Part shown: positions 1,085 to 62,245 of the stretch, in pieces
Numbering within the stretch: position 1 is the first letter of the stretch
How the letters are laid out: each line of letters opens with the position of its first letter
Assembly (NCBI RefSeq): GCF_018350175.1
Contig: NC_058382.1
Span: forward strand, 52,950,001 to 53,014,000
Length of the DNA stretch: 64,000 nucleotides
Source: Felis catus
Taxonomy: Eukaryota
Direction: 5' to 3'
Program-made: the position numbers and the translations under genes
Notes under the pieces: model-generated
What the model saw: the letters and a program-made list of their open reading frames with translations, nothing else
Database searches by the model: none
Told to the model about the DNA's origin: nothing

Positions 1085-1085
<1 letters not shown>

Positions 1086-30591: not shown

Positions 30592-33500
30592 ACTCGGAAA
30601 ATTAACTAGATGGTGGTCCCTCAACTTTCTGAATGGTTGTTAAATCTCTCATCTGCGTACACCTTTAAACAAAATAGTGTTGTATCTATAATGAGATGCT
30701 CAGAAGGCAAATAAAGTGTGGGTTCTGTTGAGAAGAGGAAAGGACCATTGAGTTTGCAGGAAATCGGGGCCTCGACGCTGAGTCTGTCTGACACCCTGGC
30801 TTTTGCTTTGCTGTGGATGTTGTTTATTTAAAAGTAGCTTTAGTCGCTCCAAAGCAAAGGCCCACCTCTCTAGCTTCTTTATAAAAGCCCGGTTTTCTAG
30901 CTAGATGAAGGCCTTGTGGAAACTGATTTCTCGCTTGATCACTGGGGATCATTTGAGACCTGATCTGGAGAAAGTTTCTATCGACTCGTATGCGGACCAG
31001 GCAGAAAAGTTGTCGACTGACAAAACCACCAAATAGGCCATGATAAAGAAGAAACGCCACCCACCCTCGGCCCAGGTAAATGTGGAATTACTCAATAGAG
31101 CTTTGCGCTGAGAGTGATAATGGGCAATCCGCTAAATTAATCGTCTATTTAAAAAAATCGCATAGTTAAGGGGATGTGCACTTATAAACCCATTCTTCAG
31201 TAGAGAAGTACTTAGGGTGCAGTAAGGAGTTTAAACAAAATTAGTGGAGAAACGGAGTTTAAGGGAACAAGAGATCAAGTTTGCCAGACTCCCCCCACAT
31301 CAGGTGATTTAAGCTAAAAATGGCTTAAAATACCGCAATCACTTGAAACGCCTTACATAAACTGACCAGGAATCTGGGGCATTCATGCTAGAGACAATTT
31401 TCTTCTCCTCAAGATAAGGGATGGGGAATTAGTCATAGGGTATTTCCAGATAATGTAGTTAACACCTCGTGTAATATTAGGTGGGCAGGGAGCTGTGCTC
31501 TCGGGACCAAAATTGTTCCTGCCAGTTCTAATAAGGAATGTGTGTATTTTTAAAGTCAGGGTAGCCACTGATGAGTCATTTCCACAATATGCCTCCCTTG
31601 GGTGTGAAATGGGGCAGAAAGAGCCCCAAATGGCTGTTTGGTGATCTGTTCAGGCATTCATTCATTCATTCATTCATTCATTCACCACGTGGTTACTATT
31701 CCCACACTCACTTGTATGCCAGGCTCGGTGCTAAGTGCCGGAGAGGCACGGGCGAATAAAATCTCATTTTCAAGGGGCTTTTTGCCCATTGGGACACCTG
31801 AAAGAGATGTGGGGTTGTACGTGGTGCGGTCCCTATTGGTCAAGGGTCAGGCGGAAAGCAGACCCTATTATGACCTAAAGGTCAAGGGTCCCTCTTGGTG
31901 GCAAGGTGATTCAGAAAGCTCATCCACGTGACTCTGTTTATAAAGGCAGCTTTCCTCTCAAATTGGTTTTGTTCACTTATTTTTGTACCCCTCATTTTAA
32001 TTTCCTGTGTGGAGCCTATCCCCTGTGCTTATTCTTGGTACGAGAGAGAGAGAATGGCGAGGCGAATATGAACTTGGGACCCAACCGTCCCTCTTCACAT
32101 TTGAGTCCTAACCCTGCCACTTGCTGTGTGTCCTTGGGCAACTTGCATAACCTCTCTGAGCTCCAGCTTCATCACGCAGCTGCGGGACTCAGGTGAGGGA
32201 TCAGCCACGGCCGTCACCAGTGACTGGGGAGAAGGTGAACGACGGAAGGGTCAGCCCCGTACTCCTTGACCCCCGCCCCCTTCTGCTGCTCCATTTTGGC
32301 TGATGAAGGGTGGAAAGAAGTTGGTCTCCCTGGCTGTGAACCCCCGAAGGGTTGCTTATTTTCTGCTGTGTCCAGCCTGTCTGATCCAGAGACCGTGTGA
32401 CCCTGCAGGATCGTAGAGCTGTACATTGGAAGCTGTCGGGGGGCCGAGAGCCGAGGAGGCCTCAGTTGCTGTGAGGTATTTCCCCACGTGCCAGTGGACC
32501 ACAGCCCTCCTCCCTGCTGTTCTTGATCTTTAGGTCCTTCTGGAACCTGGGTCAGGAAAGAGGCCTGATGAGAAAATCTTCGCAGGCGGGCTGGTGCTTC
32601 TGAGCCTTGTCTTTACAGAAGAGCCCCTGTCTTATTTCCATGGGCCCTCAGATTATGAGAGGCGTTGGTCTCCCAACGAATTAGATTCAGTAAATAATGG
32701 CCCGCGTGGTCGCTCTGTGGATAAAGCATGTTTCTCATTCGGCTCTTAAAAATATTGTAAATAGGTACCCTACCCCCTTTTCTCATTGTGGGTCACCCAA
32801 CCCGCCAAGGACTTTAGGTCAGACCCCACTGATTTGAAGGAGAAGGAGCAAAGTCCTCCTCTCAGAGCGTAGACAAGGCCGGATAAGCTAGAAGATCGCT
32901 AAGTCCAGCCCTTGTCAAAAGGGTGGAATTTGAGGGGAAGCTAAATCGATAGGCAGGCGGGATTATGGCTCCCTTAAAACATACCTTGGCCTGAGCTCAC
33001 TTTCGCACCTGCCGTACGACCTACCGCAAAGACCCCTGTGGACGGGACTCATGTCGGTTCTTCCCCCAAAGAGTCCGCCTATCCACAGCCCCAGGTTCTG
33101 CAGGTGCATCGAGGCTGGCCCTCTGCTTGGTTGGGGCGCAGGACTCCGGCTTCCCTGGTCTCTCAAGAGTAAGAGGAGACATCAAAATGTCACCATGTCA
33201 GGGCCTTCTCTGAGGTGGTGTCTCTTCTCCTGGACTGAGACTCGGGACAGAGAGACAGGGCTCCAGAAGGCAGCCCCTGAGCCCACTTGCCTTCACTATC
33301 GAGTGCCTGCAGGCAACAGCTGAGCCCATGGGCCCGGAGCCTCCCAGAAATCTGTACCAGGAACGCAAGCTCAGGGACAAGCGGAATCTCCCTGGGACCC
33401 CACAGAAGCATCCTTAGCCCCTTGCCTGCCGTGCCAGCACGGCCTCTGGAGTCACAGGGCATGGGATCGAATCCCAGTTTCGCCAGTAAGAACCCAGAGA

Positions 33501-36500
33501 GTCCCTGAAGCCCTCCGTGGGTCCTGGCTTTCCGTGAACTTGGGGAAATAAGAACAAACCTATGTCCCAGCGTTGTGGCAAGGACGACACGGGTGCGGTA
33601 TGTGTGTGTGTTGAGAAAGAGAAAGAGAAAGCAAGCAAGCTTAGGTCAGTGCGGGGCACGTAGGAAGCGTGTAAAAACAGCTTTCCTGTGAGTCATACCT
33701 TGCAGAGAACGACCCTGTCAAAGTCACGCCCACGACAGTTTGGAAAGGAAAAAAGAACATTGACCTGCGATTTTGTTTAGGCAGCAACTGAGTTCGGACT
33801 GATGGATTTTGGTTTTCCTTTGCCTCGCAAAGGGTATTCAATCACTCTGCACTCATATCTTTAGAAGTGCTAAGTACCCACTGGGGCAGGCTCTGGAGGG
33901 GCTGCCAGGAACCCCTCTCACCGAGGTCAGAGTCTAGAGCACACACGTGACCACATCACGAGGTTCAGGACGGGCAGTGAAGGTGAGGACAGGTGTCCGT
34001 TCTAGGGGGTGACATCTGAACTTGGTGATGACGGAAGGTGTCTCACGCATGAGAACTCTGTGCGGACCTTCTCCGCCGTGTGGTCAAGCCTTCCTGGTTC
34101 TCTTCCTCCTGGTCCCAGCCTCTGCCGCCCCCTCCGGTTTCCGAGTTCCACGGCGGGCACGGCTCGTCTCTGGGCGCCTCCGCCTTCCGTGGCCAGAGCT
34201 CTGCCGGGTCAGGAGTCCCCCTTGGTCCATCTGCTTCTCATCTTCCAAAATTCTTGCTGATGTTTCTTGATCCTGGAGTTAAATAAGTTGTGCCCTCTTT
34301 ATCATGCTTTTAATAGAGTTGCTGGAGGGATCTTTCTGGCAGACATGCCTGAATACAGCGTCCCAACTGGAAGCTCCCCGAAGTCTGTGCTTTTCTCGCC
34401 GCACCATCTCCCCACCGAGCCCAAGGCCGAGGAAGGATCTTGCAGGCAGAGAGGAACACGAGCCCCCGGGATGGCCGATACGTCTACGACCCCCGTGCCG
34501 CTCTTAATGTTGAGCGGGTCGCGCACGCCAGCTCCGTGTCCGTGCGTTGCACGCGCGCTCTGACTTAGCCATCAAAATCGTATCGGAATCTCAGATTTAC
34601 GGCTGAGAAGACGGCTGCACGGTGGCTGAGTGTATTTCCCAAAGTCAGACAGCTGTCGCGTGTTGGAGGTCAGCTAGCGGGGCAGCGGGCTGCGGCCGGG
34701 GTTGGCGTGCAGGATCGGCGGGCGGTGCTCTTGGGATCCGTGTGTGAGGGGCCATGTGGCGTGGAGGGGCACAGGGAGAGGACTGAGCTGCGATGGGGGA
34801 GCAGCGGACACGTCAGCCAGTCGTAAGGAGATTGAAACAGGGCGACCCTTCAGAGATGTCGTCATCTGGGGCCAAGAGGCCAAGCAGTCAGGGACGTGGG
34901 CTGCCTCCCGGAGGGGTGTGTCCTTGGGCAGGGCACATCCCTTTGGCTGACAGCCGCTTCCAAGGAAGGACTCGGCCCCCAGCAGACATCAGCCCAGCAG
35001 CTAGGGAAACGATTTCCGCCCCCCTCCCGCCCCCCGTCTAGAATGGGGGTCTCGGCAGCACACCACAGCACCTGCTACCCTTGGAAGCCATACCTCTGTC
35101 ACTTGAGTCTGTTCATGTAAGTGGGGTACAGGGATAGAAGACAGGGAGAGGAAAGAGCTAGAAAGGTAGGCTGTCTTCTCTAGACCCAGAACTGGCCGGT
35201 GGCAAAGGGGCCCGCACTGAGCAGGGATAATGGTTACATCAGATTAAACGAGTACTGTGTTTGGAGGAAACTCTCCGCTTGGGGGTACACGGGACCCTAG
35301 AGCAAATTCGGCCGGTAGGGTTCGTTTGACATCCTGAATTCTCACGTATCTCCCTTCTCGGCTGAGAAGGGAGAGACAATTTCACTCCTTTCCGACGTCA
35401 TTGGTTTCTGTTCCCTGTTTGAAAACGGTAGTCCTCCCATGCAGGAAAGATTTGGGTAACTCAGGTGGCAAAGCTCCCTTTGTGTAAAATAGCCACTTTT
35501 AAGGCTGGGACAGCAACATCATCAAGTTCCAGCACAGACCCTTCTGGTGCAATTTCGTCGGTAGGAACCTGTTTGTGCGTTCAGCTGAGGAAATACCAAA
35601 ACCAAAGCAGTTTCGAGGTTTAGCACCTTTGATGAAGTTACGAAAGTGCAGCGTGAATGAACGCCTTCCCCTTCTCCGTGTCTTCGTCTGTCGGTGGACA
35701 AACTGAATGAAAGGCCTTCCGTTTCAGAATGTGTGCCCTAACCATGTACTCGAAGCTCCTGGGTACCAGGGGGCTGTGTCTGCCCACTAGGCTTGTGATG
35801 CCGGGCAAAAGGAGTGAATTCTGAGTCTCTATACCCAGCTTCGTTAATATCTGAAAAATAATAATTCGCTGTCCTGAGATTTCCAATCCACCAAGCGGTC
35901 CCCATCTCCTCTTCTCCCTGACACCCCCCCACCTCCCCTCCTCTCATACCTCCTATTCTTACCCACAACCCCATAGGCTCCCAGATCCGGTATTGCTCCA
36001 TGGGAGACATGCTGGGGGCACATGTATTTGTTATGATATATGGCTGGCCACATGTTGCAAAAAAGAACCTAAGACAAGAACCATGTGGTTTCCAAGGATG
36101 CTGAAGTCAGAGAGAGCACAGTTCCCAGGGAGCCAGGGACATGACGAGGTCTGGAGTCAGGCAGATCTGGGTTTGGATCCTCGCACTGCCTTTCAAGAGC
36201 TCTGTGTAACCTTGACCACATTCTAGCTCCTTGAACTCCAGTTTCATGATCTCTAAGGTGAAGTCATTCTCTACCTTGAAGAATTGTTGCAGCCGTAAAT
36301 GCGCCAGTGTTTCCAAGTTTCTAGAAGGAGGTTTCGGACCTATAACCAATTCAATACACGTTGGCAACTATGGTCACCTCGGGCTGCGGGCGCCACCTGA
36401 GTGGAATCGGCTTTGAGATTATGGGGACCAACATGAACAAAATGTAAATGTCACAGGTCTGTGTTACTCTGGCCCCCGGGTCCCCCAAACCAACTTGGGT

Positions 36501-37788
36501 CTCTACTTTGCCGCTGTGCCTGCCCCAACGGTTAGAGTGCGGTTATACTTGGGGTCCTGACCTGTTTTGTCCTGCCTCATGACCTTCAAACTGTTATTGG
36601 TGGTGCGTTCTGTGGTCCCCCCACCCCCCCCCACCGGTGGCAGTGTCACACAAGCTTGCCCAGGCTGAGCGTGTGGACCTCTTCCCGACTCCACGTTCAA
36701 ACGGTCGTGTTGAGAGTATTTACACCACGGGTTTGGGCAGATATTGCGGATCAAAGTCTTCTCTCCCCTCCGTGTTCCAGTGAGCCAGGTGTTAAACTGT
36801 CACCGACACTGCTTTTCACAGACGTGCAAAGCTCCCCACGGGAAAGCAAATTGTGGTTATCTTGCTTGACTCCTCCCCACCTGCCCCCCACCCCGCCGCC
36901 GAAGGGATGACCGTGGCAGTAACCCAGGATTTTTTATGGGCTTAGAAAGGCGATTCTACACTTTAGACATACCCTACAGTTAGCAATTCGTGTATTTGTT
37001 CTCCCCATTGCCTGTTCATCGCGGTGAAAGCGTGAACACCCAAGGCAAAGGACGGGGTACGTCTCCCCCATGATAGTGGGAGGTGGTTGATGCGTGGACC
37101 CTAGAGATACAGTGGTCCTGAGTCTCAGGCCCTAGCATCCCAATTAGCAGGAAGTTACACTTCTCAGCCTCTAGGGAGGGATTAAATGGTACTGAAATCT
37201 AGAGCAGTTATGGATCTGCCCTTCTCTGTATTACACTTGAAATCAATTGGCCCTTTCCCCAAATCTGGGGACCAGAAGCAGCATTAGAGAATAGTAAATG
37301 TTAAAAACAAGGGGGGAAAGTGACTCCCTCCCCTTTTTTTCCCACTAAAAGGCTATCCTTCGTAGGACTGCCCCCTCCTCTGATCACAGATTCAAGGTGA
37401 CCAGCACAAGGAGCCACTTTTCATTATTTTTTCACGAGCAGCTGAACCCCTGGCCTCCATCCCAGTTTTAGCCTCACGGTCCAGAGTCTGTGAGCAGCCA
37501 ACTGGAGACATCTCTCCTAACGCAGGATAAATGACAAAGGTCATGGCGAGGGCCTGACTTCTGTAGCCCAAGATGCCAAGCGGCAAAGAGGTTAAGGGCA
37601 TGGGCAGCTCAGGTGTGGATCCCGGCGACACCCCTTACTCGTTGTGTGACTTTGGGCAAGTTCCTTAACTTCCCTGACCCTCGGATTCCGTGTGTGTTCA
37701 ACAGGAGTATTATAAATGAGACAGAACCCGTGAAAGGTGGAATGCTTAGGATGTTGAAAGGTCTTGTTGTTGTTGAAAGATCTACAGT

Positions 37789-41240: not shown

Positions 41241-42702
41241 TCGTGGTTTTTCTTTTTTAACTGCACTTGCTTGCTCACCTGTGGGTCCATCCGTGCGTCC
41301 TTTTCTCTAGACACCATTGCACAGGGAGATTTGGAGATTTGAAGGAGTTCTGTGTCGAGGGCCTAGGGGCCGGGTGAGAGGTCGGCAGTGGAGTCGGGAA
41401 TTTTAGAGTGCTTAACAAACAATTGTGGCCGTTGTTCAAATATAAGTGTCCTAGGGATGTGGAGGTGAACTTGGGTCTCTGGTTGCTGCGGCCAGGGAAC
41501 CAGAGGAGCAGTGGAATCCATGGCCAGCACAGCACCCAAAGATGCCGGATGACGACCGTGAGAAAGATGACCGCCACTTGAATTTTGAAGGCAGTATCCG
41601 TTGCCCCCTACTACTGAACGTCCCTCAAACAAAGGAAAGGGCAGTCTGGTCTGTATGCTTCCTTCTTAAAACTCTGAACGGAACAGCAGGCCCCTTTGAA
41701 CTAGTTATCTGTTGTGAACTCAGGAAACGGCCAGAGGTTATCACGAGTCCTCCCAAGACCATGTGAAGGCTGGTACTATGCCCATTCACAGCTGAGGCTC
41801 GAGCCTCAGGATTCGGGTGCATTTGTGGCTTCAGCTCCTGGTCTTTCCCTACCCTCCCGTAGTGCCACTGGACCACAGAACACGCGGTCTTTCCTCCTCC
41901 TGCTCCCCCTCCCGCCCCCGGTCCCTACAGGCCCCAAGAGGCGATGTTGATTCTTGTTAGAACAGAGGCTAGAGGGAGTCTCTCCCAGCCCATGGTGACT
42001 TCAGAGGGCTTCCTAAGGGGAGAACTACAGGCAGTGAGGGCTGGCTCTTCACTTGATCCGCAGGAGAGTCAGATATTGTGCAGGACGCCAGAGCCGGCTC
42101 AGTTTTCTAAAGACCTACCTTTGCCGCCTTCTTCAAGGGCTCCAGAGAGTTCCCTGTGCCATCAAATTAAGTTGGGACACTTCAATAAAAAAGTCCCGAA
42201 GGAAACTGTCAATTAATGCATTTACACTGAAGCATCATACTTGGGAAAAACATCTTCAAACGCCAGTGCTGTTTCCAGCCATTAAAAAGTTTGCGTGCTG
42301 CTTGGTTTCCATAGATACCGGAGGTAATAGGCTCCTTCCCCTCATTGAAGAGTGAGTGTCGCTCCATTTCTTTCTTTCTCTTTTTTCTTTCTTTTTTTTT
42401 AACCTAGCCTTTCGTACTTTCTCCCTCCATCCCCATTTATGAAAACAAAAGATAACTAAATTGAAACCTGGCAATGAGATTTGTCTGAGAAAGACAGCTT
42501 GATTTATAAGCTCAAGGGACTTCATTTTTGCTCACCTCCTTATTATTTCATGACTTCGACAAATAGTGTTGCTACCTGCAGGGAAGAAATGGAGTTTTCA
42601 ATTGATCAAATGACTTCCCCAGTCCATCAAACACATAAACATACTCGAAAGGGAAATGTTAATGTTCTGTTGAAGAGCACCTGAGTTTTGGCAAGGAGTA
42701 GA

Positions 42703-42922
42703 GCAGGGCTGGCAAACTGGGGCGTGTAGGGCAAATTCGGCCCACTGCTTGTTTTTGTAAATAAAGTTTTATCGGAACACAGCCACGTTCCCCAGTGTGC
42801 ATGCTGTCCGTGGTTGCTTTCCTAACAGTGGTAGATTTGACTTGTTGTGACAGAGACTATATGGCCCGCAGAGCCTAAGAGATTCTCTCGGACTCTTTGC
42901 AGAACAAGTTTACTTACCCTTG
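42703..42922. mobile_element. MER58-type MITE
   Basis: cagggctggcaaact...tgtttttgtaaataaagttttatcggaacacagccacg...gacagagactatatggcccgcagagcctaa...agtttacttacccttg. Confidence 0.88.
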
Positions 42923-43300
42923 GCATGCAGGAGAGCATCAGGGTTTGGAAGGCATTTTAGGGACACGTTGATCTCGCTGTGACTCAGTTTCTGCATCTTT
43001 GAAATGGGGACGACAGGATCTTTTCATAGGGTTTTGGGGACGTGAATGATCTAGAACTGTGCTTGGCACCTATTAGGGGAGCAGTAAATACGAATTTTTT
43101 TTTAACCCCAGATTATTTGGCTAGAGAACTCCAGAGCCGCCTAGCTTATGATTCTAGAAGTTCTTGAGAAAACTCAAGGAAAGTGGGAAGACACAAAAGC
43201 CAAACAGTTCTACATTGTTCCTGGCCCAGGTGCCTGGCCATGTGTCTCCTCCCTGGGAGCAGGCAAGGGAAACTGAGTGGAGCACTGTTCAGGGATGAGA

Positions 43301-43345
43301 CAGCAAACAAAAGAAACCACAACCATCTAGGAAGAAATCTTTAAT
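43301..43345 (-). terminator. Minus-strand poly(A) site (ATTAAA plus GU-rich downstream element)
   Basis: tttaat at 43340-43345 reads ATTAAA on minus; 15-40 nt further on minus: tggttgtggtttcttttgtttgctg; many upstream TGTA motifs. Confidence 0.6.
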
Positions 43346-45768
43346 TTCTATTCAGCTTTAAAGAGTTTGAGAGAGTTTTTTTTTTCCTTTAAACAAACCA
43401 GTTCAAGTACATGCCTTCAGATTATAAAAGTACCTGAAATTGCCTAGAATATCAGCATGCATAGCTTGTTAGTATTTACATATATTTACATACGGAAACA
43501 AGAGAAAGATCTACAGCTATTTACAGTCTACATAGGAGAAGAGAAAGGCAGCCTAATTGTATTTCCTAAAATACAGTAGATGAGTCGTCAGCACATGCAT
43601 ATTTAGATAATATTTGCATGATAGAATACAGTTTAAAAAAAAAAGACATACCTTTGTAACTTTCTATGCTAAGGTGTTGCATAATCAAGGTAATTTTTTT
43701 TGTTTGTTTTGTTTCTAGTCTATTTGCATCAAGTGCTTTAAAATGTTCACTAACACCGAGGCAGAATTATTTACCCTGGCAATTAAAGCAACAGCACACG
43801 TGATCATTTCCTACTAACTAGCAACAAGCTACTGGTGAATGAAATATCTATTGTTTCTCATTACCCATCGACCACTGTGACGAGATCTCTCTGTATAAAG
43901 GCAGTGCCTAAGCTATCACCATTAATTATGGAAGTAATATAAATGAGATGCTCTCCACAGTATGTTCTAAATGAAATATTAACAAGGCCAGCGTCTTTGA
44001 GCCTGAGAAATGATCCGTTGTAGAGAGCTCGCTATAAAAACGCGCAAACCTAATGCAAACAGCGGGCCAGACATGGGTGTCTGCCTGTGAGAGCTGAGTT
44101 CTCGCAAAGTCCATTCTTTTCATTGGTTTCTGGAAGACAGAGTTAAGAGTTAATGTCTTGCCGTGATGTGGTCCCATCACAAGACCCTGTGGGTTTTATT
44201 CCACCCCCTCCCCCATGCCTTTTGGTGCTACAGTTGTGGAATATTTCCATGACCTCGGTGTAAATGAACTGTCAACCTTAAAATCTAAGCCAACAGCTTC
44301 TTTGGGGTTTGCCCTGAAATCTGGCTTGCTCGCAAAAACAGTCAGCTCTTGGCTTTCTAAAAGATCCAACGTGGCAGGCCAACTCGGTGGAGTGACTCCA
44401 TGCAGAGGAAAGGAAGGGGGGGAGCTTCTGTTTCACCTGTACTGTTAAGATAGTCTCTGCATCATTATATGGGAACGGAACCCATTAATTCTGCCTGGCA
44501 ATTATTTCAAAGGTTTATTTCAGTATACGTGGCAAATACAGAGACATACATTTATATACAGTATACAGAGCTACTTAGAACGGAGGATAAAAAAGTAGAG
44601 TAAAAATGTAAACTGTTTCAAATGAACACAGGCTAAGTATTTTCTTCTACCTCTTAAAACACCCAGCCATCTTTCAGCACTAGAGTTGAGGCGACCTGGT
44701 TGGAAAATTTCAGTTTCCAGCCGTCAGATTTGTCCCGTACGGAAGCATGATGCTATCTTGGGTGGCAAAGTTCTATGGCTCTTCCGCTTCGCCGTTTCGA
44801 ACTAACCCGTGGAAGCATGGCTACCCCAGTGCGTTTTTCCATCCCAGGGAACTCCCCATTGGAAAAGAAACTGTACTTTGAGCAGTGTGGGTTTTCCGGG
44901 CAGCCCTGGCGGGGAATGCCCAGGGAATTCTTCCTTGGCTGTGAGACCATCAGTGGTATCCTCTCTTATTTTTAAGGAGACCATCTCTCAGGCCCAGTCC
45001 TCTTTAGGTTGCTCTGGTGGGCATGAATTGAAGGGGGGATAAGCAGGATTAGAGTTGCCCACCTGGAATGCACCTGTGCTGTTCCTCTTCCTTCCCCTCA
45101 TTCGGAGGAACCTGGACGCCTGCCCCAAGCAGGTCTACAGGCCTCGGAGAACAGCAGGTCTCAGAAAGATGAAAACCATTCTAAATATTGCGCCTCCGCT
45201 CTTTTGAGACCAGACATAAATCTGTCGTGGAGTCCTTGCAACATTTATGGCAGGGATTCCGGAACACGGAAGAGGTATGAAAAGGGTCTCATTTATTTCA
45301 AGGGAAAGTTCAGAACAGTTCATTGAATCGAAAATACAGGTCCTGAAACCCTACCAAGGTCACTGCGCCCTTACATCCTGCTGCTAGCCTAAGTGAAAAT
45401 CCTCCCGTGCCTGGCCTGCCCAGAACAAACATGGCGTCGGGCCTATTTGGATGGTTGGGGTTGGCTGCCTTTTGCTCCGCAAAACTTAAGGCTAGTGAGG
45501 ACAAATATGTTCTTCTGTCTTTAAACACAAAAACAAAACCTTTCCAGCTTTCCGTCCTGAACCGACCAGTCTCTGAACTCGTTCCTGCAAAGGTTTCTCA
45601 GAGGAAGAGCAGTGATGTGCCCTCTGACTTTCCGTCTCATTCTACCCTGGTCTCCAAGTCATTCTCTTAAAACTCCATAATGACTCTGCTAGAAATTCAT
45701 GTCTTTTGTCAAGGGCAATGCTGTGGTCCTTGTAGTCTGACTTGGTTTGGGGCACCTATTTGGGATGC
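43322..45768 (-). ncRNA. Candidate antisense terminal exon (non-coding/3' UTR-like; possibly a distal MAF isoform)
   Basis: Acceptor cctttcttgtctgttttCAG|G at 45769-45771 with GGTGAC branch-like motif (A at 45796), two downstream poly(A) sites, PUM elements, no recognisable repeats. Confidence 0.45.
44490..44570 (-). terminator. Minus-strand poly(A) site (AATAAA with four upstream UGUA)
   Basis: Minus strand reads tgtatactgtatataaatgtatgtctctgtatttgccacgtatactgAAATAAAcctttgaaataatt; hexamer at 44514-44519. Confidence 0.55.
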
Positions 45769-47079
45769 CTGAAAACAGACAAGAAAGGTTCTGTGTCACC
45801 TTGTAGACTGTCTCTGAATGGAGGCCTGTGGACATGTGGCTTTTTCTTGAAAGCGGTACCACAACTGCTCCCCCTCCAACATTTCACTCAGGAGACCCTT
45901 TGAGTTTGGGGCTCCAGCCTGTGCTGGGACCAGCTGCACTCATGGCAATGGACTGGCCTACCCTATTGCTTGGTCCTCCCCTGGAGCCATTGCGATCAAG
46001 CTCCCCGCCCCCCAAGGCTGTGTCCTCAGTGTCCCCTGGGGAATGACACTGCTTTACCTGCTGTGGGGGAGACAAGTCAACCGAGTGGAACCTCTGAGGT
46101 TTTCCACACTTGAGAACTTATTTTAGCAAAGAAGCGGTTTCCCTGTGGCAAGAGGAGAAAGTCCATTGCTTTAGAGCAGGACACGTTCTCCTCTGTAGGG
46201 CTAAGAGTCCGAATGTGACCAAAATGGATGCTCTGGAACATTCTCTCAGACTTTTAAAGCCTCCACAGTTAAAAACAGGTATCTGCACATTCCTGATCTT
46301 CTCCACTTTTCTCTATTGGAGAAATTGAGTGTGTTTTGTAATCAATGTTGAGAACAGCCTGTGAGCAGAACTCCTCAAAGTACTGGAGAAAGTTCTATTT
46401 TGACGCCAACAGGAAGTAGCCACATGTATCCAAGCCCGTATGGTTTGAAGCCTTTGTGGGAATCAATCGTTAGGAATTAATTAATTGGGGGGCAGGGGGA
46501 GAATGGGGCATGGGGACCAGAGTTTCCTCTGAACACTTGATGTCACATCAGGTATTGTCTTCCAGAAGGCCACACGCATCTTACATGTATGCGAACTTAT
46601 AGGATGGAGATTTGCTTAGGTTTCATTGGTCTTGATGTGGTTCAGTTCCTGCACTGAAAAAAAAAAAAGTCTAGGGTCCAAGAGGAGCTTGGAGGTGGCA
46701 TTTTGAATCAGGTGACCTTTTCGTGAAGGTCATTTGCTATTGGATCTTCTGAGGTGGTGCTGAGCCTTCAGTTTTGTTAATCCAAAAGGATATAATTTCA
46801 ATTTAGTTCACTGACTAAACCAACAACAGAAAAAAATCTCCTTTTAACATTTCTCAGGTGAAGGCATGACAACCCACTTAATTGCAGGCCACGTTGGGGC
46901 ATCACACCGTGGCCAGCCATGGCTTGGCTGCGAGGAGGGCAAGGAGGCCCTCATCAGGAAGCTTCTGCCAAGAGGGGAGACAGGCAACAGGGAGCAGGCT
47001 ATAGGCGAACATCTGTGTCACCTGTTTGGGAAGGAGGCTTGGCACGGCCACCTGATAAGACTTCCGGAGTGGTTCCGTC

Positions 47080-47270
47080 CGTGTGGTTATCTGTGTGGCT
47101 TTGGACAAGTTGCTTTTAATCTCTGATGCTAACTGGGCTTCTCTGTAAATGGGGCTACATCATAATTGCCTCTGGCCTGGAGAGCTTCGTGGGGGTTAGA
47201 AAATCATGCTTACAAAGCTCCCTGGCGGGGCCTGATGAATTATAAGCTCTCGGTACGTGCTATCCACTGT
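47080..47270 (+). mobile_element. MIR fragment
   Basis: ctgtgtggctttggacaagttgcttttaatctctg...ctctgtaaatgggg. Confidence 0.65.
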
Positions 47271-50200
47271 TACCCCTTGAATAGTCCCTGTTTGCAACCA
47301 CTCGTTAGAAGAGCATGACAATTTGGAGGACAGGGTCCTTTGGAATTCTCTGTTCTAGCGTCTCCCATAATTTAGGTAGAAGCCGGTGTGTTCGTTGATT
47401 AGCACTTACTTCACGACTTGTCAGTTCGATTGCACAAGCATCACGGTGGAGGAAGGGGGTGACTTTTTGGCTGTGGTTGCGCTCCCGGGGAAGGCCCACG
47501 AGCCTCGTTCCTCTGCAAGCTGCCTTACTCCGTGTAATGAAATATGCGGCACCTTTTGGGGCTTAAAAGATTGTTCTCAGATGGGAAGGAGGGAACTGAT
47601 AACATTTGGGGGCCAGTTTGCTTTCGTTTGCCTTTCAAATCAGAGATTCAAACCGTTATTGTCTTTGGAGGAACAGATGTGTGCCAAGGTATCCGGAGAT
47701 GAACTCCGGAACACGGCATTGAGCTTTTCCAGCAGAGGGGTTACAGACTCTTGTTTCGGGAGCGTTCTTGGGAGACAGGGAAAGACAGGGTGTGGAGACA
47801 GCCCTTGATTCCACCCGAGACACGTGCATTCACTCCCTCTTCTCCACCGAGGCTGTGATAAGTCACTCTGCCGCATTCCGGAGCCACCGGACAGGTGGCT
47901 GGTTTCGTATCTGATGCATGTTTGCCTAGCAGACGCTGGCGGAGTAACGGGGACAGCTCTGAGGGTTCCAAGAGGCCCCTCTGTTGTCTTCCTGCCATCA
48001 CTGTCCGGGAATTCAGCACGATAGTCACTGCTCATTTCCAAGAGGGCTCTTCTCCCTGCCCCCCTCCTTGGGTTTCCAAGCTCGGGCTGACTTTCGTGAC
48101 GGGTTTCTTTACCCAACTACTTTCTGTTGAGTCGATTCACTCAACATTGGCTGCGCGATGTCCTGGCATCAGTATGTCTATAATAAAGCAATCTCCGAAC
48201 ATCTACTCTGCTTGAAATCACTGAATATACAGATGTTCCGTGACTGTGTGTCTACTTTTTTATACGTCTCATAGTTAAATCTACGGCAAGACAGGACTAT
48301 ATTCTTCCTTTTAAGTAAGCATGCATTTTAAAACAGAGAAACTTGAAAACTGAACGTCGTGTACTACGTGTCCTTATTAAAACGCAAGTTATATGAGAGT
48401 TGCTAACCAATGCATCACAAATATGAATATGTGGGGGTTGGTTTTTTTCCCTCTACCATATATCGTCTATCAGAAACCTCTGTACCTTTCCTTGGAAAGA
48501 GTCCATATTCATTTGTATTCCATGCTGACAGCTCCAGAATGATGGCCGGTGCTTCTCAAATAAAGGTTGATGAAAAGCAGCTACTTAACATCTTTATCCC
48601 CACAAAGGGTTTTGTGAGGATGGCTCATTTCGATCTCAGGGTCTCAACTCTACATCAACAACTGCTTTTTAAAGCCCACCTTTCTGGAGTTGAAGATTGG
48701 GCTGCCAATCTGACAAATGATTCCTGAAAGAGAATGACGCACCCGTATTACCAAGATACTCTTAACTGAATCCCCCAAAAAAGAATCGTAGGTGATTTTG
48801 CATACACTATAAAGATTGAGGGCATACTTCTCCTCTGGCAGCTCACAAATGTTTGACTCGATCCGAAATGGCATTCGGGCGTGATTAAAGGTTCTGCTGG
48901 GCTTACCCCGAAATTCTCCGTCTTGCATCATCCGCACCCCAACTCGTGCCGTGTCTACGGGACGGGGCCGCTGCACCCCAGTCCCCAGGGATCCCAACTG
49001 CCTGGAACCTGTGAGCTTTGGGTGAGCTGTTCTTAAAACTTCACTTAGGGGAACCCACAGCTCCAGCCGGTGTTGATGTGTCAAGGTATCGCTATTATTT
49101 TATCACGCTGGATCAGTAAGCAGTGGTGATAACCACCCGGACGTCTCTTCAGATATTTTATAGCACAGTTGTTAACATTGTTTCCTTTATATGGCTCTTT
49201 CATCTTTTTTGAATTATGTACTGATGCCCCAAAAGTGGCATGAAAGCCATCTGATGGTGATTAAAGCGCTCTTGAAACAAGTTTTTTTTTTTTTCATCCG
49301 TTTAAAAAATGTTTTATCTTGTATCAGCAGTACCGGTTTATTTACTAATGAGATTTCCCTAATGTGGCTCTGTCTCATTCTGATGATAGGCAGACCAAAA
49401 AGCTGATGAGCCAAAAATGAGAACTTGTTATTAAACTGTCATCACATCTGATCGTATAAAGATGTCACTCAGGCTGCCATTGGCACAGCCGAAAAGAGAA
49501 GAGAATTCCCCGAGAAGCCAGAAGGGGAGTGGGCTTGGGACTGAAAGGTACGGTCACTACTTAAGTGTCCCGACAAGAGAGGCAAGGGAAGTGGGCACCA
49601 GCCGAACCGAGCAAGACCCAGGAGGGTGGATGTGCCGAATGGATGTCGTTCATCTTCAGAGCAGAGGTGGTCTTTGCTTTCAGGGATCCCTACTGCCCCA
49701 TGTTCTTCTCTAGAGCCGGAGTTACTTATGAATGCCATTAGGACTGTGGATCACCACCCCGAGCCTCGTGGCAAAGGAATCAAAGCCAGCTCTTGGGGAA
49801 AGATTGGGCTTTTCTAAAACGCATGGTTCTCGGCATGGCAGCCAAGTGTCTGTTTACACGAAATGAGGTCAACTGCAACTGCTTTCAGATTCCACCGAGG
49901 GAAGACGCATGCCCCCAAGCTCCCTCATCAGTCTGATTCTGAATCAATGGACGTGCAGAATTTCTTTGCAAAAATGCCATCCCACCAATGCAAGAGCGCA
50001 ATCCGACACCATTTTAGAAGGTCACAGTGGCAAGGTACTACCTTGGGTTCGGAAGACTTCCGCTTTTCGCTTTCCCAAGCCGCCTACTTGGATCTTCTCT
50101 CCCACGACGGGTGAATGCTAATATTGTAAGCACACTCGCTGGGGGGCGGGGAGCCCGAGTTTAGGGATGAGCTCACTGGGTTTTCTCACCACTTGGGAAC

Positions 50201-52066
50201 TGCTGGCAAACCACCCGACCACTCTTTGGTGGTTTTGGCCACTGCCAAGTAAGATGGAAATCATAGATATCCTGAAAATGAAGCAAAACACTATCTCCAC
50301 CTGAACTCTGCTAAGAATTGAGGCCAAAGTGATATTTGGCTTGAGTTACCAGGCTGAGCCTCTCAGTTCTTCAATTTGTCTTTAGAGGCAGTCCGCTTCC
50401 CTTTTGCCCCCGCGTGGCACGAAGAGTCGTCAGATCAGCCGCTGGGAATTCTTTCGATAAATGTGCCAGGTGCTAAGCTAAGGGTTATTAGGAATGATAA
50501 TTCAGTGAGAGGGAATTTGGATGACACACACTTATTTCCATTATACTTGAGCCACACAAATCAATTCGAAAAGAAATAGCTGAATCCAAGGAAATAACTG
50601 GCTATCTGGGGAGTGGACATGGCCAGGGGGCCGGGGAAATGGGACACCCATTCCTGTTTAATTAAATTGGAGTCATGTCAGGTGTTCGGATTCTGGACTA
50701 ATGGGACTTGTCCAACCCAGTCAAGCATCCAGCTATCACTAGGACTCGAGTCGGACGCTCTCCGCTGCTCTCCACTCCACAGTGCTCCCCACAAAATCCT
50801 GTCGCTTGACTGCGTTTGACCATTTGCTTTTCAGACCAATTGAAATGCGACCCTAGAACCCGACACTGAACCTGTCTCCCCCCCACCAAAAAAAAACAAA
50901 AACAAAAACAGAAACGAGCAAAATACTCAAGTCTACTTTTTAGCACTGTCCTAAAATTACGACACCTGGACAGAAATGCGTTTGCCTCTCAAATATCTTT
51001 AGGGTCTTCCCCTAAGGGTGACCTTATCCCCATTACCTTTTTCCATCCTCTGCTGCAACCCCCCCCTCCCTATCAGCTGATAATTAGTTGATGCAGCAAG
51101 GGCTGTGATCCACATAAATAATCATAAGATGCCAGATAAACTGTATTGGTTTTAAATTAGAGCCGTGCCTATCGTGTCTCCCTACGAACACCAGCCTATT
51201 ATTTTTAATTATGGCTTGCAAAGCAAAGTGATTTCTTGCCCTCTTTACAGCATCCCTGACAGCATTGTGTCAGCCGGGATGATATGGTGCCCCATCGGCA
51301 CACACATCCCTAGCCACAGCACCAACTGTTACTCAGAAGGTGAATCGAAAGTAATCAATTGTACTCATTGCAACTTACAGTTTGAAGTGGCCTGGGAGGA
51401 AATGTACCCCCTTAGTCACTGTCCCCTTGCAAATGCGGGATGAATATGAAGAAAGGTTTTCATGGGATCTGGATGAATTACTACACGTGTCCTGTGTCTG
51501 CTTGAGACACGTATGCGTGGCAAGAAGAACGTGTGTAGGCGTGTTTTCAACATTTTCACCCAGCAAACCCTTCTCCTAGCAGCACCGTGGGCAAAAAAAA
51601 ATAAATAAATAAAGAGAGGCTCTGGCACCAGGCCCTCCCTGGGTTTTCTATCTGATGGGCATTAGAGTGGTTGGTTTCATCCAGACAGAAGGTTCTGGAA
51701 ACATCTCGGGGTCAAATCACATCATGCATTCAGAAGTCAACGGGGTGGATGAACTTGTTCCTGCATGTTCAAAGGCATATACCCTCTTTTTCTCTTGGCT
51801 CAGAAGAGACCTTTGATGTGATTTATTGCGGCGCGTATTTATTTCTGAAGCCTTTTCCTCTACGAGGTGTAAAAAGTCACACCAGCTTTACGAGCAGCGT
51901 TTGTGAACTTGCTTTTTTCCAGGATGGTCACCGCCTCCCTTTTAGGGTCACGTGCTGAGTTCAGTACCCTCTGCCATGCTGAGATCGGGGTGCAGCCGAA
52001 CCCGACACGGAGGGGCTTGCTCGTGCCCAGACAGAATGAAGTCAGCTCATCACCTCTTTTCTTTAA

Positions 52067-52321
<255 letters not shown>

Positions 52322-53281
52322 GCGTGAGCGGCCGTGAGCGTGCTCGGCACACACACCCGCCCTGTGCGCGCGTAGCTGCCGACGCCGGGCCCCTGCCCAC
52401 TTACGATCCCGGGCCTTTCCAGGTCCCCCCAGCCCCCCCGACCCCCGCCCCCAACCCAGATCCACCAGACAAAGGAAGTAAGAGTAGTCACGACAGAGGG
52501 AAAAATGCCAAGCGCCGGTGAGAAGCTGGGAATGGCAGGGCCAGGGGGACAATCTCCTTTCTCTGGGGCTGGGTGAGGCCCGGGTCTCTTTGCTTTCCTG
52601 GTGGCGGCCTGTTTGAACGCAAACGCTTAGTTGGTATGCGGGTCCCTTGTCTCACGGCAGAAGCCCAAGCAATTCTCTCACACTGTTTAGAGTAGCCAGG
52701 TGCCCCCTGTCTCTCCCCACCCTGGCCACCACCACAGCCACGGCCTTACCATCGCCACGCTGTAGCCAGGAACTGGTCTTCTCCTGTTGAGGGCAGAAGA
52801 GGCGAGTGTCTGTCCTTCTTTGCTGCCCGGATCCAGGAGATCATTGTTTGACTCACCCTGACCAAGCCTGAGTGGGCGCGGTGATGACTGGGGACCCTTG
52901 TTCCAGCCAGCCAGGAGGGAGGTGACACTTAGAAATGGGTGCCATACACAGAGCTGGTGGGTCACAGAAGGGCTGGCCCGCCCACTCCGTCGCCAAAGCT
53001 GCACCCAAAATTCTTTAGAGATTGTAACAAATTCTGCAAATCATGCCCTAGACACCTTGGCAGGCAAGAAAGGAAGCATTGCGTCCGTGAGAATATACAG
53101 GATATTTGCGGGAGCAGAGGATAAAAAGTCGTTTCCATTCATTCCTCATCTGCAGTTTCTAGAAGTAACCCGGATCGCAGAGGTTCAAGACCTCTGCGTT
53201 ATCCTGCTGGAGATTTCTGCTTAGACTTCCTGTCACTCCTCCCATCCTATGCTTAATAAAAGAACATGCTTGAATATTATC
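52322..53281 (+). other. WWOX: WWOX 3' UTR
   Basis: Repeat-free sequence from the stop codon to AATAAA(53255)agaacatgcttgaatattatca, followed by a GT/T-rich downstream element. Cleavage position is approximate. Confidence 0.85.
53255..53260 (+). terminator. WWOX: WWOX polyadenylation signal AATAAA
   Basis: Canonical hexamer ~930 nt after the stop; T/GT-rich DSE at 53298-53349. Confidence 0.85.
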
Positions 53282-53370
53282 ACCTGAAGTTCGCACTGTT
53301 TCTTTAAGTGTTTGTTTCAGTTTTGTTTTTTGTTTTGTTTTCTTTTTTTAGAAAAGAAATCTAGAGGAAA

Positions 53371-53376
53371 AATAAA
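53371..53376 (+). terminator. Possible second (distal) WWOX poly(A) signal
   Basis: AATAAA followed ~30 nt later by gttcttgtttcttcttctctgagtttgttttgtttttgtg. Confidence 0.5.
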
Positions 53377-53999
53377 GCGCTTCTTGTAGACGCCAGGAAA
53401 ACACCGTTCTTGTTTCTTCTTCTCTGAGTTTGTTTTGTTTTTGTGCTTTGTGGCTGTCTGTGGGCCAAGTTGTCTCCCGCGATTAGCATGCCAGCATCAT
53501 ATTTTCTGCAGAAGAAAGAAGAGAAAAAGAAAAATGACTATTGTTTAATTTCACCTGAGAGGTTTTGTTATTACTCGCGGGTTATTTCAGTCCTCAATGG
53601 CTTGCTCCCCCTGCAATTACCAAGTTCTCGGTGATTAGAGACTCTATCTGTGCATCAGAATGGGGGCGATTGAGGTCTCTTTCTAACTAACCCCCTTTCC
53701 CATTCCAGCAGGGAGATAGGCAAATCCACAATGGCATGACAGAATGCTTTGGCCAAAATACCAAGCGGTAGGGTACGTGTGTGTATGTCATTGTTCATCC
53801 TGACGATGGCAGTTTCGGGTCAGGCAACGTCATGAGTCTCTGGGCCTCTGGCCCTGTGGTACGGGCAAACGCCAGTGCTTTCCAGGGCTCTGAGCCTGGC
53901 ACGTCCTCTCCTCTGGCTACAGTCTCCCTAACAAAATCCTTATTATCGCAGCTCCTTTAAAACCATGAACCTGATAATGTCGCTTTTCTGGTCCAAACC

Positions 54000-54450
54000 C
54001 TCTAGAGTTTCTGAGGTTGACTGTTTGCAAAGTGGTGCTCACAGTTCTCCTCCTGGTCCCCACACCTTGGACAGTCCTCTACTACACCGGCTCTGGCCTG
54101 GGCCACATGACTTGCTTTAGAAAATTTGAAAAGTGCCTGTGCACTGGGGCCTGCCTTTGCAACTCTGGAACCACGATCAGGTGAATGAGCCTGGGATAGC
54201 CTGCTGGACGATGACATGTGGTTGCTACCCTAAGTGACATCAAGCTAACCATTGGACCTGTGAGTGAGGCCACCCCAGACTAGTCAACCCCAGCCAAGCC
54301 AACCGAGATGAGAAGCTCCCCAACCCCAATAAGAAGAACCCAGATAAGAAGCTCCCAGATCCACAGAACTGAAAAAAAAAATGAAAGTTTGTTATCTTAA
54401 GCCACAGAGTTTGATCATTACTTGTTACGCAGCAGATACTAACTGATACA
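54000..54450 (+). mobile_element. MLT1-type LTR
   Basis: cctgtgagtgaggccacccc...atccacagaactg...ttgttatcttaagccacagagtttg...ttgttacgcagcagatactaactgataca terminus. Confidence 0.8.
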
Positions 54451-54455
54451 ACTTC

Positions 54456-54730
54456 TCATCTCAGTGAGTAAAGTCCATATTTTTTACCATACCCTAGGGA
54501 TTCTTTCATAAACTGGTTCCCAGCTAGCTTTTCAATCTCATGTTCTAGCACTTTCTCCTCACCCGCTACATGAAGCCAATCTAGCCTTCTTGGGTTCCTG
54601 AAATATGCCAAGCACACTCCCCGCTCAAGGACTTTGTACTTGCTGTTCCCTCTGCCAAAATGCTTTTCTTCCAGAGACCTGCATGGCTTCCTCTCATACC
54701 ACATTCTGGTTTCTGCTTAGATGTTACCCC
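54456..54730 (+). mobile_element. L2 3' fragment
   Basis: ttcctgaaatatgccaagcacactccccgctcaaggactttgtacttgctgttccctctgccaaaatgc. Confidence 0.75.
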
Positions 54731-54912
54731 TTTCTGATGAGGTGATATCCAACATATCAAAGTGAACTAAGGGAGAATGTGCTGCCTACCTGCCTCCTTG
54801 CACTGTTAAGTTTGCTGTGCTGCCTGATTTCCATATGGATCCTGCATCAGGAGGATGAGATGAGGCTTGGGGGAACCTGAGGTGAGGATTCCCCCGAATC
54901 AAGAACCTCTCA

Positions 54913-56317: not shown

Positions 56318-56559
56318 TTTTTATTTTTTTAATTTTTTATTTAATTTTTTTTAACGTTTATTTTTTTATTTTTGAGACAGAGAGAGACACAGCATGAACG
56401 GGGGAGGGGCAGAGAGAGAGGGAGGCACAGAATCGGAAGCAGCCTCCAGGCTCCGAGCCATCAGCCCAGAGCCCGACCCGGGGCTCGAACTCGCGGACCG
56501 CGAGATCGTGACCTGAGCTGAAGTCGGACGCTTAACCGACTGAGCCACCCAGGCGCCCC
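56318..56559 (-). mobile_element. Young CAN-SINE; (CA)n follows at 56583-56623
   Basis: CpG-rich intact antisense SINE. Confidence 0.93.
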
Positions 56560-59517: not shown

Positions 59518-59717
59518 GGGATGCCTGGATGGCTCAGTTGCTAAGCATCTGACTTTGGCTCAGGTCATGATCTTGTGGTTTGTGGGTTCGAGCCCTGCGT
59601 CAGGCTCTGTGCTGACGGCTCGGAGGCTGGAGCCTGCTTGTCCACCCCTCCCCTGTTCATGCTCTCTCTCTCTCTCTCTCTCTCTCTCAAAAAAATTTTT
59701 TAAAACTTAAAAAAAAA
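59518..59717 (+). mobile_element. CAN-SINE
   Basis: SINE body; TSD aatgttga. Confidence 0.88.
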
Positions 59718-61122: not shown

Positions 61123-62020
61123 TAAAAGTACACCATCTAGAAAAAAAAGAAAAACTAAAAAAATAACGTTTCATCCGACAACTATCCCTCTAAATGAGAG
61201 CAGGATCAGTGACAAATGGCCTCACCAGCCCTCGCTCTGACTTTTAACTCCAGGACAGTATGCTGAACTGATCTTTCGCAAGGCTTTGGAGAGCATCGCC
61301 TCACAGACCGGCCCGAGCGTGTGACCGCAATTTCACTTTTTCAGACTGGGTTTCGCGATGCCTGAGACCCCGCTTCTCACCGGCCGGTGCCCTTTTTAGT
61401 CGTGGCATCTCTGCTCATTCACACTTTTACAAGACACACACGCAGTGTGAAGGTAGAACGGAAGGGCCGTCTGCTCACATTCGGCGCGGATGAAACCTCA
61501 AACCTTTCTCCTAAGCGTCCACGCAGGCTGGGTCGTGAGGCACTTTGCTCCGGGAGACCAATGTGACGGCGGTGGTGGGGTGTGGGTGTAGCTGACGGCC
61601 CCTCTCAGGGCTTCGACCCGGGTGCACTTTTGTGGAAATCAGAGCCGGGAGATCACTTACATCGACTCCCCAGAGGGCGACGACCCCAGCGGTTGTGCTA
61701 AGTGGATCCCCTTTTCACCTCCCAGCAACACTATGCTGGGTCTGAGATGGGGCAAGTCAGTAACACCAAGGCGGGATATTAGGTGTCGACAGAGGGATCA
61801 CGAAGAACAAAAATATTCTTGGAGAAAGAATATAAGGCAGAAGAGAAAGCCTAGTGAGATGGCCCTGGTTTCCGGCCTCACCTGCCCAGTGATGTGACGC
61901 TGGGGCATCATTTGCCTTCCCCCAGCGCCCAGGCCCAGGGACTTGTGAGGATGAAGCCTGGTTCATAGAAGCAGGTTAGTAACTAATTTAATTTAATTTA
62001 TTATTTATTTATTAATTTTA

Positions 62021-62245
62021 TTTATTTAAAAAAAAAATTTTTAACGTTTATTTATTTTTGAGACAGAGAGAGATAGAGCACGAACGGGGGAGGGTCAGAG
62101 AGAGAGGGAGACACAGAATCAGAAACAGGCTCCAGGCTCTGAGCAGTCAGCACAGAGCCCGACGCGGGGCTCGAACCCACGGACCGCGAGATCGTGACCT
62201 GAGCCGAAGTCGGACGCTCAACCGACTGAGCCACCCAGGCGCCCC
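62021..62245 (-). mobile_element. Young CAN-SINE, TSD tatttattaatttta
   Basis: Intact antisense SINE. Confidence 0.93.

Follow-up and report, generated by a model that had tools for sequence, protein, structure and literature searches.

A candidate minus-strand 3′-terminal exon in the last intron of feline WWOX and its possible link to MAF

Within a 64,000-nucleotide window of the cat genome (NC_058382.1, contig positions 52950001-53014000), the interval at 43.3-45.8 kb carries features that suggest the non-coding 3′-terminal exon of a polyadenylated minus-strand RNA in WWOX intron 8, and on balance the evidence leans slightly toward this reading. The primary transcript would start at a point upstream of 53.5 kb and run antisense through the last exon of WWOX, with splicing into 53505 and 45768, the sole acceptors that stand out. 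Its 3′ end would fall at either of two tandem poly(A) sites: one at ~44.49 kb, where an AATAAA is preceded by UGUA, and one at ~43.32 kb, where an ATTAAA is followed by a GU-rich element. Each site is closely preceded by Pumilio/CFIm-type motifs in 3′UTR-like abundance.

If joined to MAF, these exons would add nothing to the MAF protein and would form an alternative far-distal 3′UTR or non-coding tail; if driven by a promoter of its own, the RNA would be a WWOX-3′-antisense lncRNA. Given a real exon, the question of the MAF link could fall either way. The composite proposal, that a conserved alternative 3′ end of MAF lies far distally, ~337-347 kb below its coding exon and antisense in the WWOX last intron, we consider unlikely.

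Poly(A) signals and motif content at 43.3-44.65 kb

The 3′UTR-like block at 43300..44650 on the minus strand is a stronger signal than the acceptors. It combines tandem poly(A) signals with Pumilio-type UGUANAUA motifs at 44560, 43525, 43490, and 43480, all four on the minus strand. These make up 4 of the 7 minus-strand matches in the window versus 0 of the 4 plus-strand matches, where block composition (61.6% AT) predicts by our own arithmetic ~0.2 per strand. UGUA shows a similar bias in the block, with 13 copies on the minus strand versus 7 on the plus strand; all of these enrichments are post hoc, noticed after looking.

The proximal hexamer, AATAAA at 44514..44519 (minus strand), has four UGUA copies within 60 nt upstream, the highest such count among 104 minus-strand hexamers, and a downstream region with G/T at 9 of 12 positions. 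The distal hexamer, ATTAAA at 43340..43345 (minus strand), is followed by G/T at 12 of 12 positions and 19 T in 40 nt, a downstream element equalled solely by hexamers adjoining a GT microsatellite or a G run. Its UGUA copies lie at 43411-43532, with none in the last 60 nt, and cleavage is expected near 43322. A hexamer with upstream UGUA and downstream GU/U-rich elements, the canonical requirements for cleavage and polyadenylation, is thus found at both sites. An earlier note on this DNA had described two full poly(A) sites at ~44.5 and ~43.3 kb; we confirm the motifs and find that their auxiliary elements are the best in the window. These observations support a strand-specific 3′UTR grammar on the MAF strand.

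RNA from this region might instead derive from the plus strand, either as pre-mRNA of WWOX intron 8 or from an alternative exon on the WWOX strand, with a start perhaps at a CpG island at 34.3-34.9 kb. The block does lie within WWOX intron 8, the island is upstream of 43.3-45.8 kb on that strand, and the assembled contigs considered below are strandless. However, the plus strand of 43.3-45.8 kb has no good poly(A) signal (a single poor ATTAAA) and no acceptor scoring at least 6, and every UGUANAUA motif in the block is on the other strand. In addition, intronic RNA from a weakly expressed gene of ~1 Mb would not be expected to fill 80% of the interval in small contig sets. We judge a plus-strand origin very improbable.

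Splice sites, gene order, and coding potential on the MAF strand

The WWOX last exon (exon 9) occupies 52133..53281 on the plus strand, with the stop codon at 52319-52321 followed by the 3′UTR; a plus-strand AATAAA at 53255 places the expected cleavage near 53281. In a protein search WWOX has 147 homologues at an E value of ≤1e-5, of which those named are WW domain-containing oxidoreductases. MAF is encoded on the minus strand ~337 kb away, its 3′ end facing that of WWOX, and the convergent neighborhood asserted previously therefore holds in the cat assembly, with both genes on the same contig and on opposite strands. The window lies downstream of MAF exon 1 on the exon-1 strand, the position of an alternative 3′ exon. 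The MAF exon-1 donor, at contig position 53340014 (minus strand), is strong (AT/GTGAGT) and is separated from the 53505 acceptor by 336.5 kb.

Acceptors were scored by two crude measures, a count of pyrimidines and a PWM built from textbook frequencies, which permit ranking within the window only. The strongest minus-strand motif, at 53505..53534, consists of a polypyrimidine tract and CAG with the exon starting at 53505, about 225 nt past the WWOX poly(A) site. Pyrimidines fill 19 of 20 positions, a level that no other of the 625 filtered minus-strand YAG sites reaches, and the motif ranks first of 4868 minus-strand AGs, in agreement with the very strong acceptor reported at 53506-53534. Second of the 4868 is the motif at 45768..45792 (minus strand), the candidate start of the terminal exon. 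Two further minus-strand motifs, at 50271..50295 (exon start 50271; rank 21/4868) and 48723..48747 (exon start 48723; rank 60/4868), are at chance level, as 5 of the 21 and 13 of the 60 minus-strand sites scoring at least as high, respectively, fall within the same 10.2-kb range. Thus, of the three acceptors that the earlier note called good (50272, 48724, and 45769), the last stands and the first two are ordinary, while every motif coordinate given there is correct.

A control cautions against reading much into acceptors by themselves. The true WWOX exon-9 acceptor (plus strand, exon start 52133) scores 8.2, and at this threshold the range holds 3 of 6 minus-strand and 3 of 7 plus-strand sites. 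Only one of the three plus-strand sites is real; the unannotated plus-strand sites 51804 and 53352 match it in score. As the excess of acceptor motifs is found on both strands, acceptors alone prove little.

Donors behind the candidate minus-strand exons are weak overall. Behind the 53505 acceptor lies a candidate exon body at 52858..53504 (minus strand), for which the possible donors are 53284 (weak, score 2.82, rank 100/3200), 52857 (6.05, rank 11), and 52750 (5.4, rank 21). Mature RNA would overlap the WWOX 3′UTR only through donor 52857 or 52750. Transcriptional collision and sense/antisense pairing, both proposed in the earlier note, may be among the consequences.

That note had envisaged a complete chain running from MAF exon 1 through 53505, 50271, 48723, and 45768 to an end at 44.5 or 43.3 kb. 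Gene order and orientation fit such a chain, as do the strong MAF exon-1 donor and the 53505 exon, which if read in the phase of MAF exon 1 has 47 open codons before a stop. Against it, 50271 and 48723 lack usable donors in addition to being at chance level: no donor scoring at least 4 follows 50271 until 48680, and that same donor would leave 48723 with a 44-nt exon. The predicted tail is also present in no protein of the collection; a search of proteins 84-2000 aa long with the peptide encoded by the 53505 exon in the MAF phase gave no relative (five candidates, none scored), which weighs little against a junction. Nor does the window encode the C-terminal tail of any of the 120 listed MAF homologues, these tails being either encoded no more than 13 kb from exon 1 or species-specific predictions unmapped in the window. 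The full chain is, in our view, very improbable.

The known alternative MAF 3′ coding exons, with ITEPTR... and YPRESSTSVM tails, are on the same strand as the candidate and are spliced from the exon-1 donor that a MAF-linked candidate would also use. Unlike it, they lie close to exon 1 in the cat (4.4 kb and 12.7 kb downstream, versus 337 kb) and encode conserved peptides, found in 14 and 25, respectively, of the 120 listed homologues, whereas the window encodes none. A YPRES-type exon is absent from the window, and six odd MAF tails compared to it by tblastn gave a best E value of 0.35. The YPRESSTSVM exon might be an internal exon feeding distal UTR exons, but the candidate donor behind it is weak by hand calculation; behind this exon there are only two mediocre ATTAAA hexamers within 1.5 kb. 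The cat MAF short form has no exact match in the protein collection.

Other searches for encoded products gave little. Exact look-up of 10 ATG-initiated ORFs (four from the block, five intronic controls, and one positive control from a WWOX exon) found all of them absent, the positive control included, and Pfam returned nothing for 10 ORFs at the curated cut-off. Rfam gave two tRNA-like hits in the window, both SINE heads outside the range, and ARAGORN gave four of the same type.

Repeat freedom, conservation, and assembled contigs

The candidate region and the WWOX last exon are enclosed in a 13.6-kb zone, 41261..54908, free of SINEs and other repeats, wider in extent than the SINE-free zone claimed earlier. 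A self-BLAST of the window yielded 43 repeat intervals of at least 40 nt, of which a 68-nt interval at 42741-42808 is the only one in the zone. Positions 43000-54000 are single-copy in the 2.43-Gb assembly, with only three low-complexity matches of 36-50 nt elsewhere. A retrocopy origin of the block was considered and is ruled out, as a parent copy is missing from the genome and the DNA past the poly(A) signal has no A-tract.

A non-coding segment of ~250 nt at 43929..44180 (minus strand) matches Logan-derived ORFs. With P0241, identity is 96% over 83 aa; with P0242 and P0243 it is 64% over 39 aa and then 60% over 25 aa in another frame, a switch that implies a frameshift. These matches support conservation of the segment as non-coding DNA in short assemblies of two other taxa. 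The check for deep conservation thus covers one 250-nt piece in two taxa, with translated identities of 96% and about 62%. Metagenome scans found no match to a 27-nt conserved stretch, and 99 matches to profile-derived patterns, of which none was confirmed.

The main competing explanation is that no discrete minus-strand RNA exists, the region being a conserved enhancer cluster of the MAF block next to the constrained WWOX last exon, and the acceptor and poly(A) motifs being chance matches. PMC2745767 presents WWOX as a bystander in the MAF genomic regulatory block, and the candidate block is repeat-free and lies within the conserved WWOX-MAF synteny block, the position described there for HCNEs. 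Freedom from repeats, single-copy status, and non-coding conservation suit enhancers as well as they suit a UTR, and TAAT-type cores are, by eye, abundant in the conserved 43.9-44.2-kb piece. The acceptor-like motifs enriched on both strands, in AT- and pyrimidine-rich DNA, would also be in keeping with enhancers, as would a second repeat-free zone at 29.1-37.8 kb for which no transcript is proposed. On the other hand, the strand asymmetry of UGUANAUA, UGUA, and complete poly(A) signals is unexpected for enhancers; HCNEs require no poly(A) grammar and have no strand bias, and the motifs here are strand-specific.

Assembled contigs bear on the same question. Thirteen contig sets (107-934 million letters, from eight studies), guessed to be RNA and thus possibly capture or other DNA libraries, contain 0.76-0.85 of the 31-mers of 43300-45770, the sole region queried. 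One run recorded as RNA contains 0.77 of them; its contigs total 1887 million letters, and it may carry host DNA. Whole-genome-sized contig sets contain 1.00. That the thirteen sets are not certified as RNA accommodates an enhancer cluster. Yet the smallest sets, of 107-211 million letters, amount to 4-9% of genome size, and it is difficult to see how ~80% of a 2.5-kb intronic stretch could be recovered from them unless expression or capture had enriched it. Altogether, an enhancer cluster alone is a serious but somewhat unlikely explanation, and we favor the minus-strand terminal exon.

Relation to known transcripts and implications

A long human MAF transcript model in GENCODE/Ensembl presumably ends ~10 kb inside the WWOX 3′ end, the offset also given in the earlier note. 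This would be the same strand relation, a MAF-strand RNA ending in the WWOX last intron, and the ~10-kb offset matches the spacing in the cat between the distal signal (43345) and the poly(A) site of WWOX (about 53281). A literature search for the identifier and coordinate of the human model found no papers. If the model does end there, what we describe in the cat would simply be the orthologous counterpart of a human transcript that has been annotated but not discussed.

Other RNAs of this landscape offer partial parallels. Among convergent (tail-to-tail) cis-natural antisense pairs, WWOX-AS1 (PMC10219390) is an RNA opposite to the WWOX strand and, like the candidate, could pair or interfere with WWOX; here, overlap of the mature RNAs hinges on the choice of donor in the candidate. 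The lincRNAs MAFTRR and LINC01229, as mentioned in PMC6348267, are likewise non-coding RNAs of the MAF locus, but they lie upstream of the MAF start, whereas the candidate is downstream, in WWOX. PMC6348267 also places GTEx eQTLs for MAF inside the WWOX transcript. We searched the literature for a MAF-strand RNA within the 3′ end of WWOX and found none described.

In mammals, convergent genes often overlap at their 3′ ends, and distal alternative terminal exons are also common; hence the arrangement, even if true, is an instance of an already known kind; if the region is an enhancer cluster only, the finding is ordinary. WWOX is a fragile-site tumor suppressor and a neurodevelopmental disease gene, and MAF is a myeloma oncogene and a transcription factor of lens and immune cells. 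The two genes share a gene desert, where GWAS and eQTL signals are given to either by proximity.

If the MAF-linked reading is true, MAF would gain a separately regulated second 3′UTR, rich in Pumilio motifs and with tandem poly(A) sites, and MAF-strand transcription would pass head-on through the last exon of WWOX, at the margin of the FRA16D fragile region. With a MAF-strand RNA ending in WWOX, unstranded data at the 3′ end of WWOX would also be confounded, both for expression and for the assignment of eQTLs. Such a transcript would constitute a cis link between WWOX and MAF, through which the expression of an oncogene and that of a tumor suppressor would be coupled.

Gene order around the 3' end of WWOX

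The last exon of WWOX (exon 9) was placed by translation behind a good acceptor, starting on the plus strand at 52133 and reaching a stop codon at 52319-52321. When 60 residues of this exon were used as a query against longer proteins, 147 matches were obtained at E ≤ 1e-5, the named ones being WW domain-containing oxidoreductase. An AATAAA at 53255 points to a WWOX poly(A) site near 53281, and the exon 9 start places 43.3-52.1 kb within WWOX intron 8.

The DNA comes from C39:52950001-53014000 (+) of a 2.43-Gb cat assembly, C39 being the contig label. When this assembly was searched with Pfam Maf_N, c-MAF was located on the minus strand of the same contig, so that MAF is the convergent neighbor of WWOX, as the earlier note held. 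Cat MAF has a single coding exon of 383 aa with the C terminus ...SPEFFM, followed by a donor, AT|GTGAGT, at C39:53340014; this donor lies 336.5 kb from an acceptor at 53505 and ~346.7 kb from a distal poly(A) signal at 43345, both on the minus strand. The short form encoded by exon 1 (706-1857, minus strand, of L002, a locus cut from the assembly around MAF) has, within its 383 aa, a long stretch of glycines as well as a run of histidines, and its exact sequence is absent from a collection of 15 billion proteins.

A candidate minus-strand 3' end in WWOX intron 8

It had been proposed that a hidden spliced minus-strand transcript crosses the WWOX 3' end between 43.3 and 53.5 kb, its exons being candidate far-distal 3' exons of MAF. 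All of its motifs are found where they had been placed, and the 3' end is a better signal than the acceptors. Two hexamers, a proximal AATAAA at 44519 and a distal ATTAAA at 43345, were compared within a set of 104 minus-strand AATAAA/ATTAAA in the window. The proximal hexamer has four upstream UGUA, the most among the 104, and the distal one has a downstream element with 12/12 G/T, equalled only by hexamers adjoining a microsatellite or a run of G; the context of the two is superior to that of WWOX's own signal. Furthermore, four of the window's seven minus-strand matches to the Pumilio-type motif UGUANAUA fall inside a 1.35-kb block (43300-44650), each being followed by a hexamer 40-190 nt downstream, as against none of the four plus-strand matches; the expectation, by post hoc arithmetic from an AT content of 61.6%, is ~0.2 per strand. 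On the plus strand, 43.3-45.8 kb contains a single poor ATTAAA and lacks any acceptor with a score of ≥6; we regard a plus-strand origin of any RNA signal as very improbable. Such a strand-specific combination of poly(A) and Pumilio motifs resembles a tandem-poly(A) 3'UTR and would not be expected of an enhancer.

Sampled 31-mers from 43300-45770 were searched for in sequencing runs. The fraction recovered is 1.00 in six contig sets of genome size (2330-2463 million letters) and 0.76-0.85 in thirteen small contig sets (107-934 million letters, 8 studies), whose RNA nature is a guess and one of which carries another species label. It is 0.77 in a gut metatranscriptome (1887 million letters), the one run that is recorded as RNA. 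The presence of about four-fifths of a deep-intronic 2.5 kb in small contig sets suggests enrichment by expression or capture.

Self-comparison of the window returned 43 repeat intervals, mostly SINE copies of about 200-300 nt, and we read the repeated units as carnivore-type tRNA-derived SINEs. The SINE-free zone described earlier is borne out and is wider than had been stated, as 41261-54908 is repeat-free in this comparison save for one 68-nt piece. Elsewhere in the genome, 43000-54000 has only three matches, all low-complexity and of 36-50 nt. ARAGORN and Rfam made tRNA-like calls at 18211-18296, 56469-56554, 59523-59607, and 62155-62240; these coincide with repeated SINE units, and real tRNA genes at the four positions were rejected.

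Conservation was examined with an 89-aa minus-strand open reading frame (ORF; 43929-44195) in a profile-free search against 1.84 billion representatives, which gave two matches, each on short Logan contigs (1.4-2.6 kb). The first has 96% identity over 83 aa. For the second, which has a sibling in its 90% cluster, identity is 64% over 39 aa, after which the match shifts to another frame, with 60% over 25 aa. The sequence is thus conserved at the DNA level in at least two further taxa, but a coding frame is not preserved. Ten ORFs of the region matched no Pfam family at its cut-off, and Rfam gave no match in the 43.3-53.5 kb range.

Both the repeat freedom and the conservation would be explained if the region were a cluster of enhancers carrying chance motifs, that is, conserved non-coding elements of a MAF genomic regulatory block, of which WWOX is an alleged bystander with such elements around it, according to PMC2745767. 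Such a cluster leaves unexplained the strand bias of the poly(A) and Pumilio motifs, along with the 31-mer content of the small contig sets if those runs are RNA, and we consider it possible, if rather unlikely.

Acceptors, donors, and candidate first exons

Acceptors were ranked across the window by counting pyrimidines and by a position weight matrix (PWM), both crude measures; the PWM frequencies are textbook values and serve for ranking only. Among 4868 minus-strand AGs, the acceptors for exon starts 53505 (19/20 pyrimidines) and 45768 rank first and second, and those for 50271 and 48723 rank 21st and 60th. The 10.2-kb range holds 5 of the 21 sites at the 50271 score and 13 of the 60 at the 48723 score, which puts these two at chance level; thus, of the four acceptors held to be good, only 53505 and 45768 stand out. 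As a control, the true WWOX exon-9 acceptor (plus strand) scores 8.2 with the same PWM, and at this threshold the range contains 3/6 minus-strand sites versus 3/7 plus-strand sites, only one of the latter being real. Acceptor-like motifs are therefore locally enriched on both strands and by themselves are no evidence of a gene; an enhancer cluster would have them by chance. Two plus-strand motifs, at 51804 (330 nt upstream of WWOX exon 9) and 53352 (just beyond the WWOX poly(A) site), score 8.38 each, versus 8.2 for the true acceptor.

The donors available to end the proposed exons are either weak or poorly placed. The minus-strand donor at 53284 scores 2.82 (rank 100/3200); those at 52857 and 52750 are better, and with either of them the exon would extend into the WWOX 3'UTR. 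Between 50271 and 48680, no donor reaches a score of 4. We consider the full chain of 53505, 50271, 48723, and 45768 very improbable. The reading toward which we lean slightly is that 43.3 to ~45.8 kb is a genuine 3' terminal exon, non-coding and polyadenylated, on the minus strand.

Two CpG-rich patches were also observed. The first, at 61200-61900 (GC 0.56-0.58, CpG o/e 0.7-0.88), lies 8 kb past the WWOX 3' end, carries strong donor motifs on the minus strand (61882, rank 2/3200; 61381; and 61226), and is a candidate local first exon, possibly with a promoter of its own, for a minus-strand RNA feeding the 53505 acceptor. The second, a CpG-island-like patch at 34300-34900 deep in WWOX intron 8 (GC 0.59-0.65, CpG o/e up to 0.97), sits within a second zone without within-window repeats (29111-37783, 8.7 kb) and may be either a promoter not yet annotated or a conserved element.

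Relationship of the candidate exon to MAF

C-terminal tails were surveyed in the best 120 of 387 MAF homologues, among which 75 are the short form ending in M, 25 have a MYPR[ED]SS..VM tail, 14 have ITEP...-type tails, and 6 have odd predicted tails. The MYPR[ED]SS..VM tail is common to birds, turtles, and mammals, and one of its clusters comprises 98 sequences. The ITEP exon of the cat is 4.4 kb below MAF exon 1, and the YPRESSTSVM exon (G|TAC..., then stop; C39:53327275-53327307, minus strand) is 12.7 kb below it. The latter is a third MAF coding tail exon, with only two mediocre ATTAAA in the 1.5 kb that follow.

No exon resembling ITEP or YPRESSTSVM was found in the window, and none of the six odd tails maps to it. 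Read in the phase of MAF, the exon beginning at 53505 would contribute I and a further 47 residues, a peptide for which no carrier was found among longer proteins, which is weak evidence. With neither a window-encoded tail nor a relative of this peptide, the exons, if they belong to MAF, would be non-coding. In the phase set by the MAF exon-1 donor, 53364-53504 and 50121-50270 (minus strand), which belong to the 53505 and 50271 candidate exons, are both open for ~47-58 codons; these frames have no Pfam match and no known relative, and are probably due to chance.

Indirect hints of a MAF link come from two papers, one describing a provirus within intron 8 of mouse Wwox that activates distal Maf together with unannotated sequence lying outside Wwox in opposite polarity (PMC4098794), the other placing MAF eQTL from GTEx inside the WWOX transcript (PMC6348267). 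Should the terminal exon be real, its joining to MAF is in our estimation a toss-up, and a real exon that is also joined to MAF is, overall, distinctly unlikely.

Arrangements of both kinds, convergent 3' ends that overlap and alternative terminal exons at a distance, are well known. A long human MAF model presumably ends ~10 kb inside WWOX, as the earlier note also held; a literature search for its identifier and coordinate found no paper. The human counterpart of the cat candidate exon may already be annotated.
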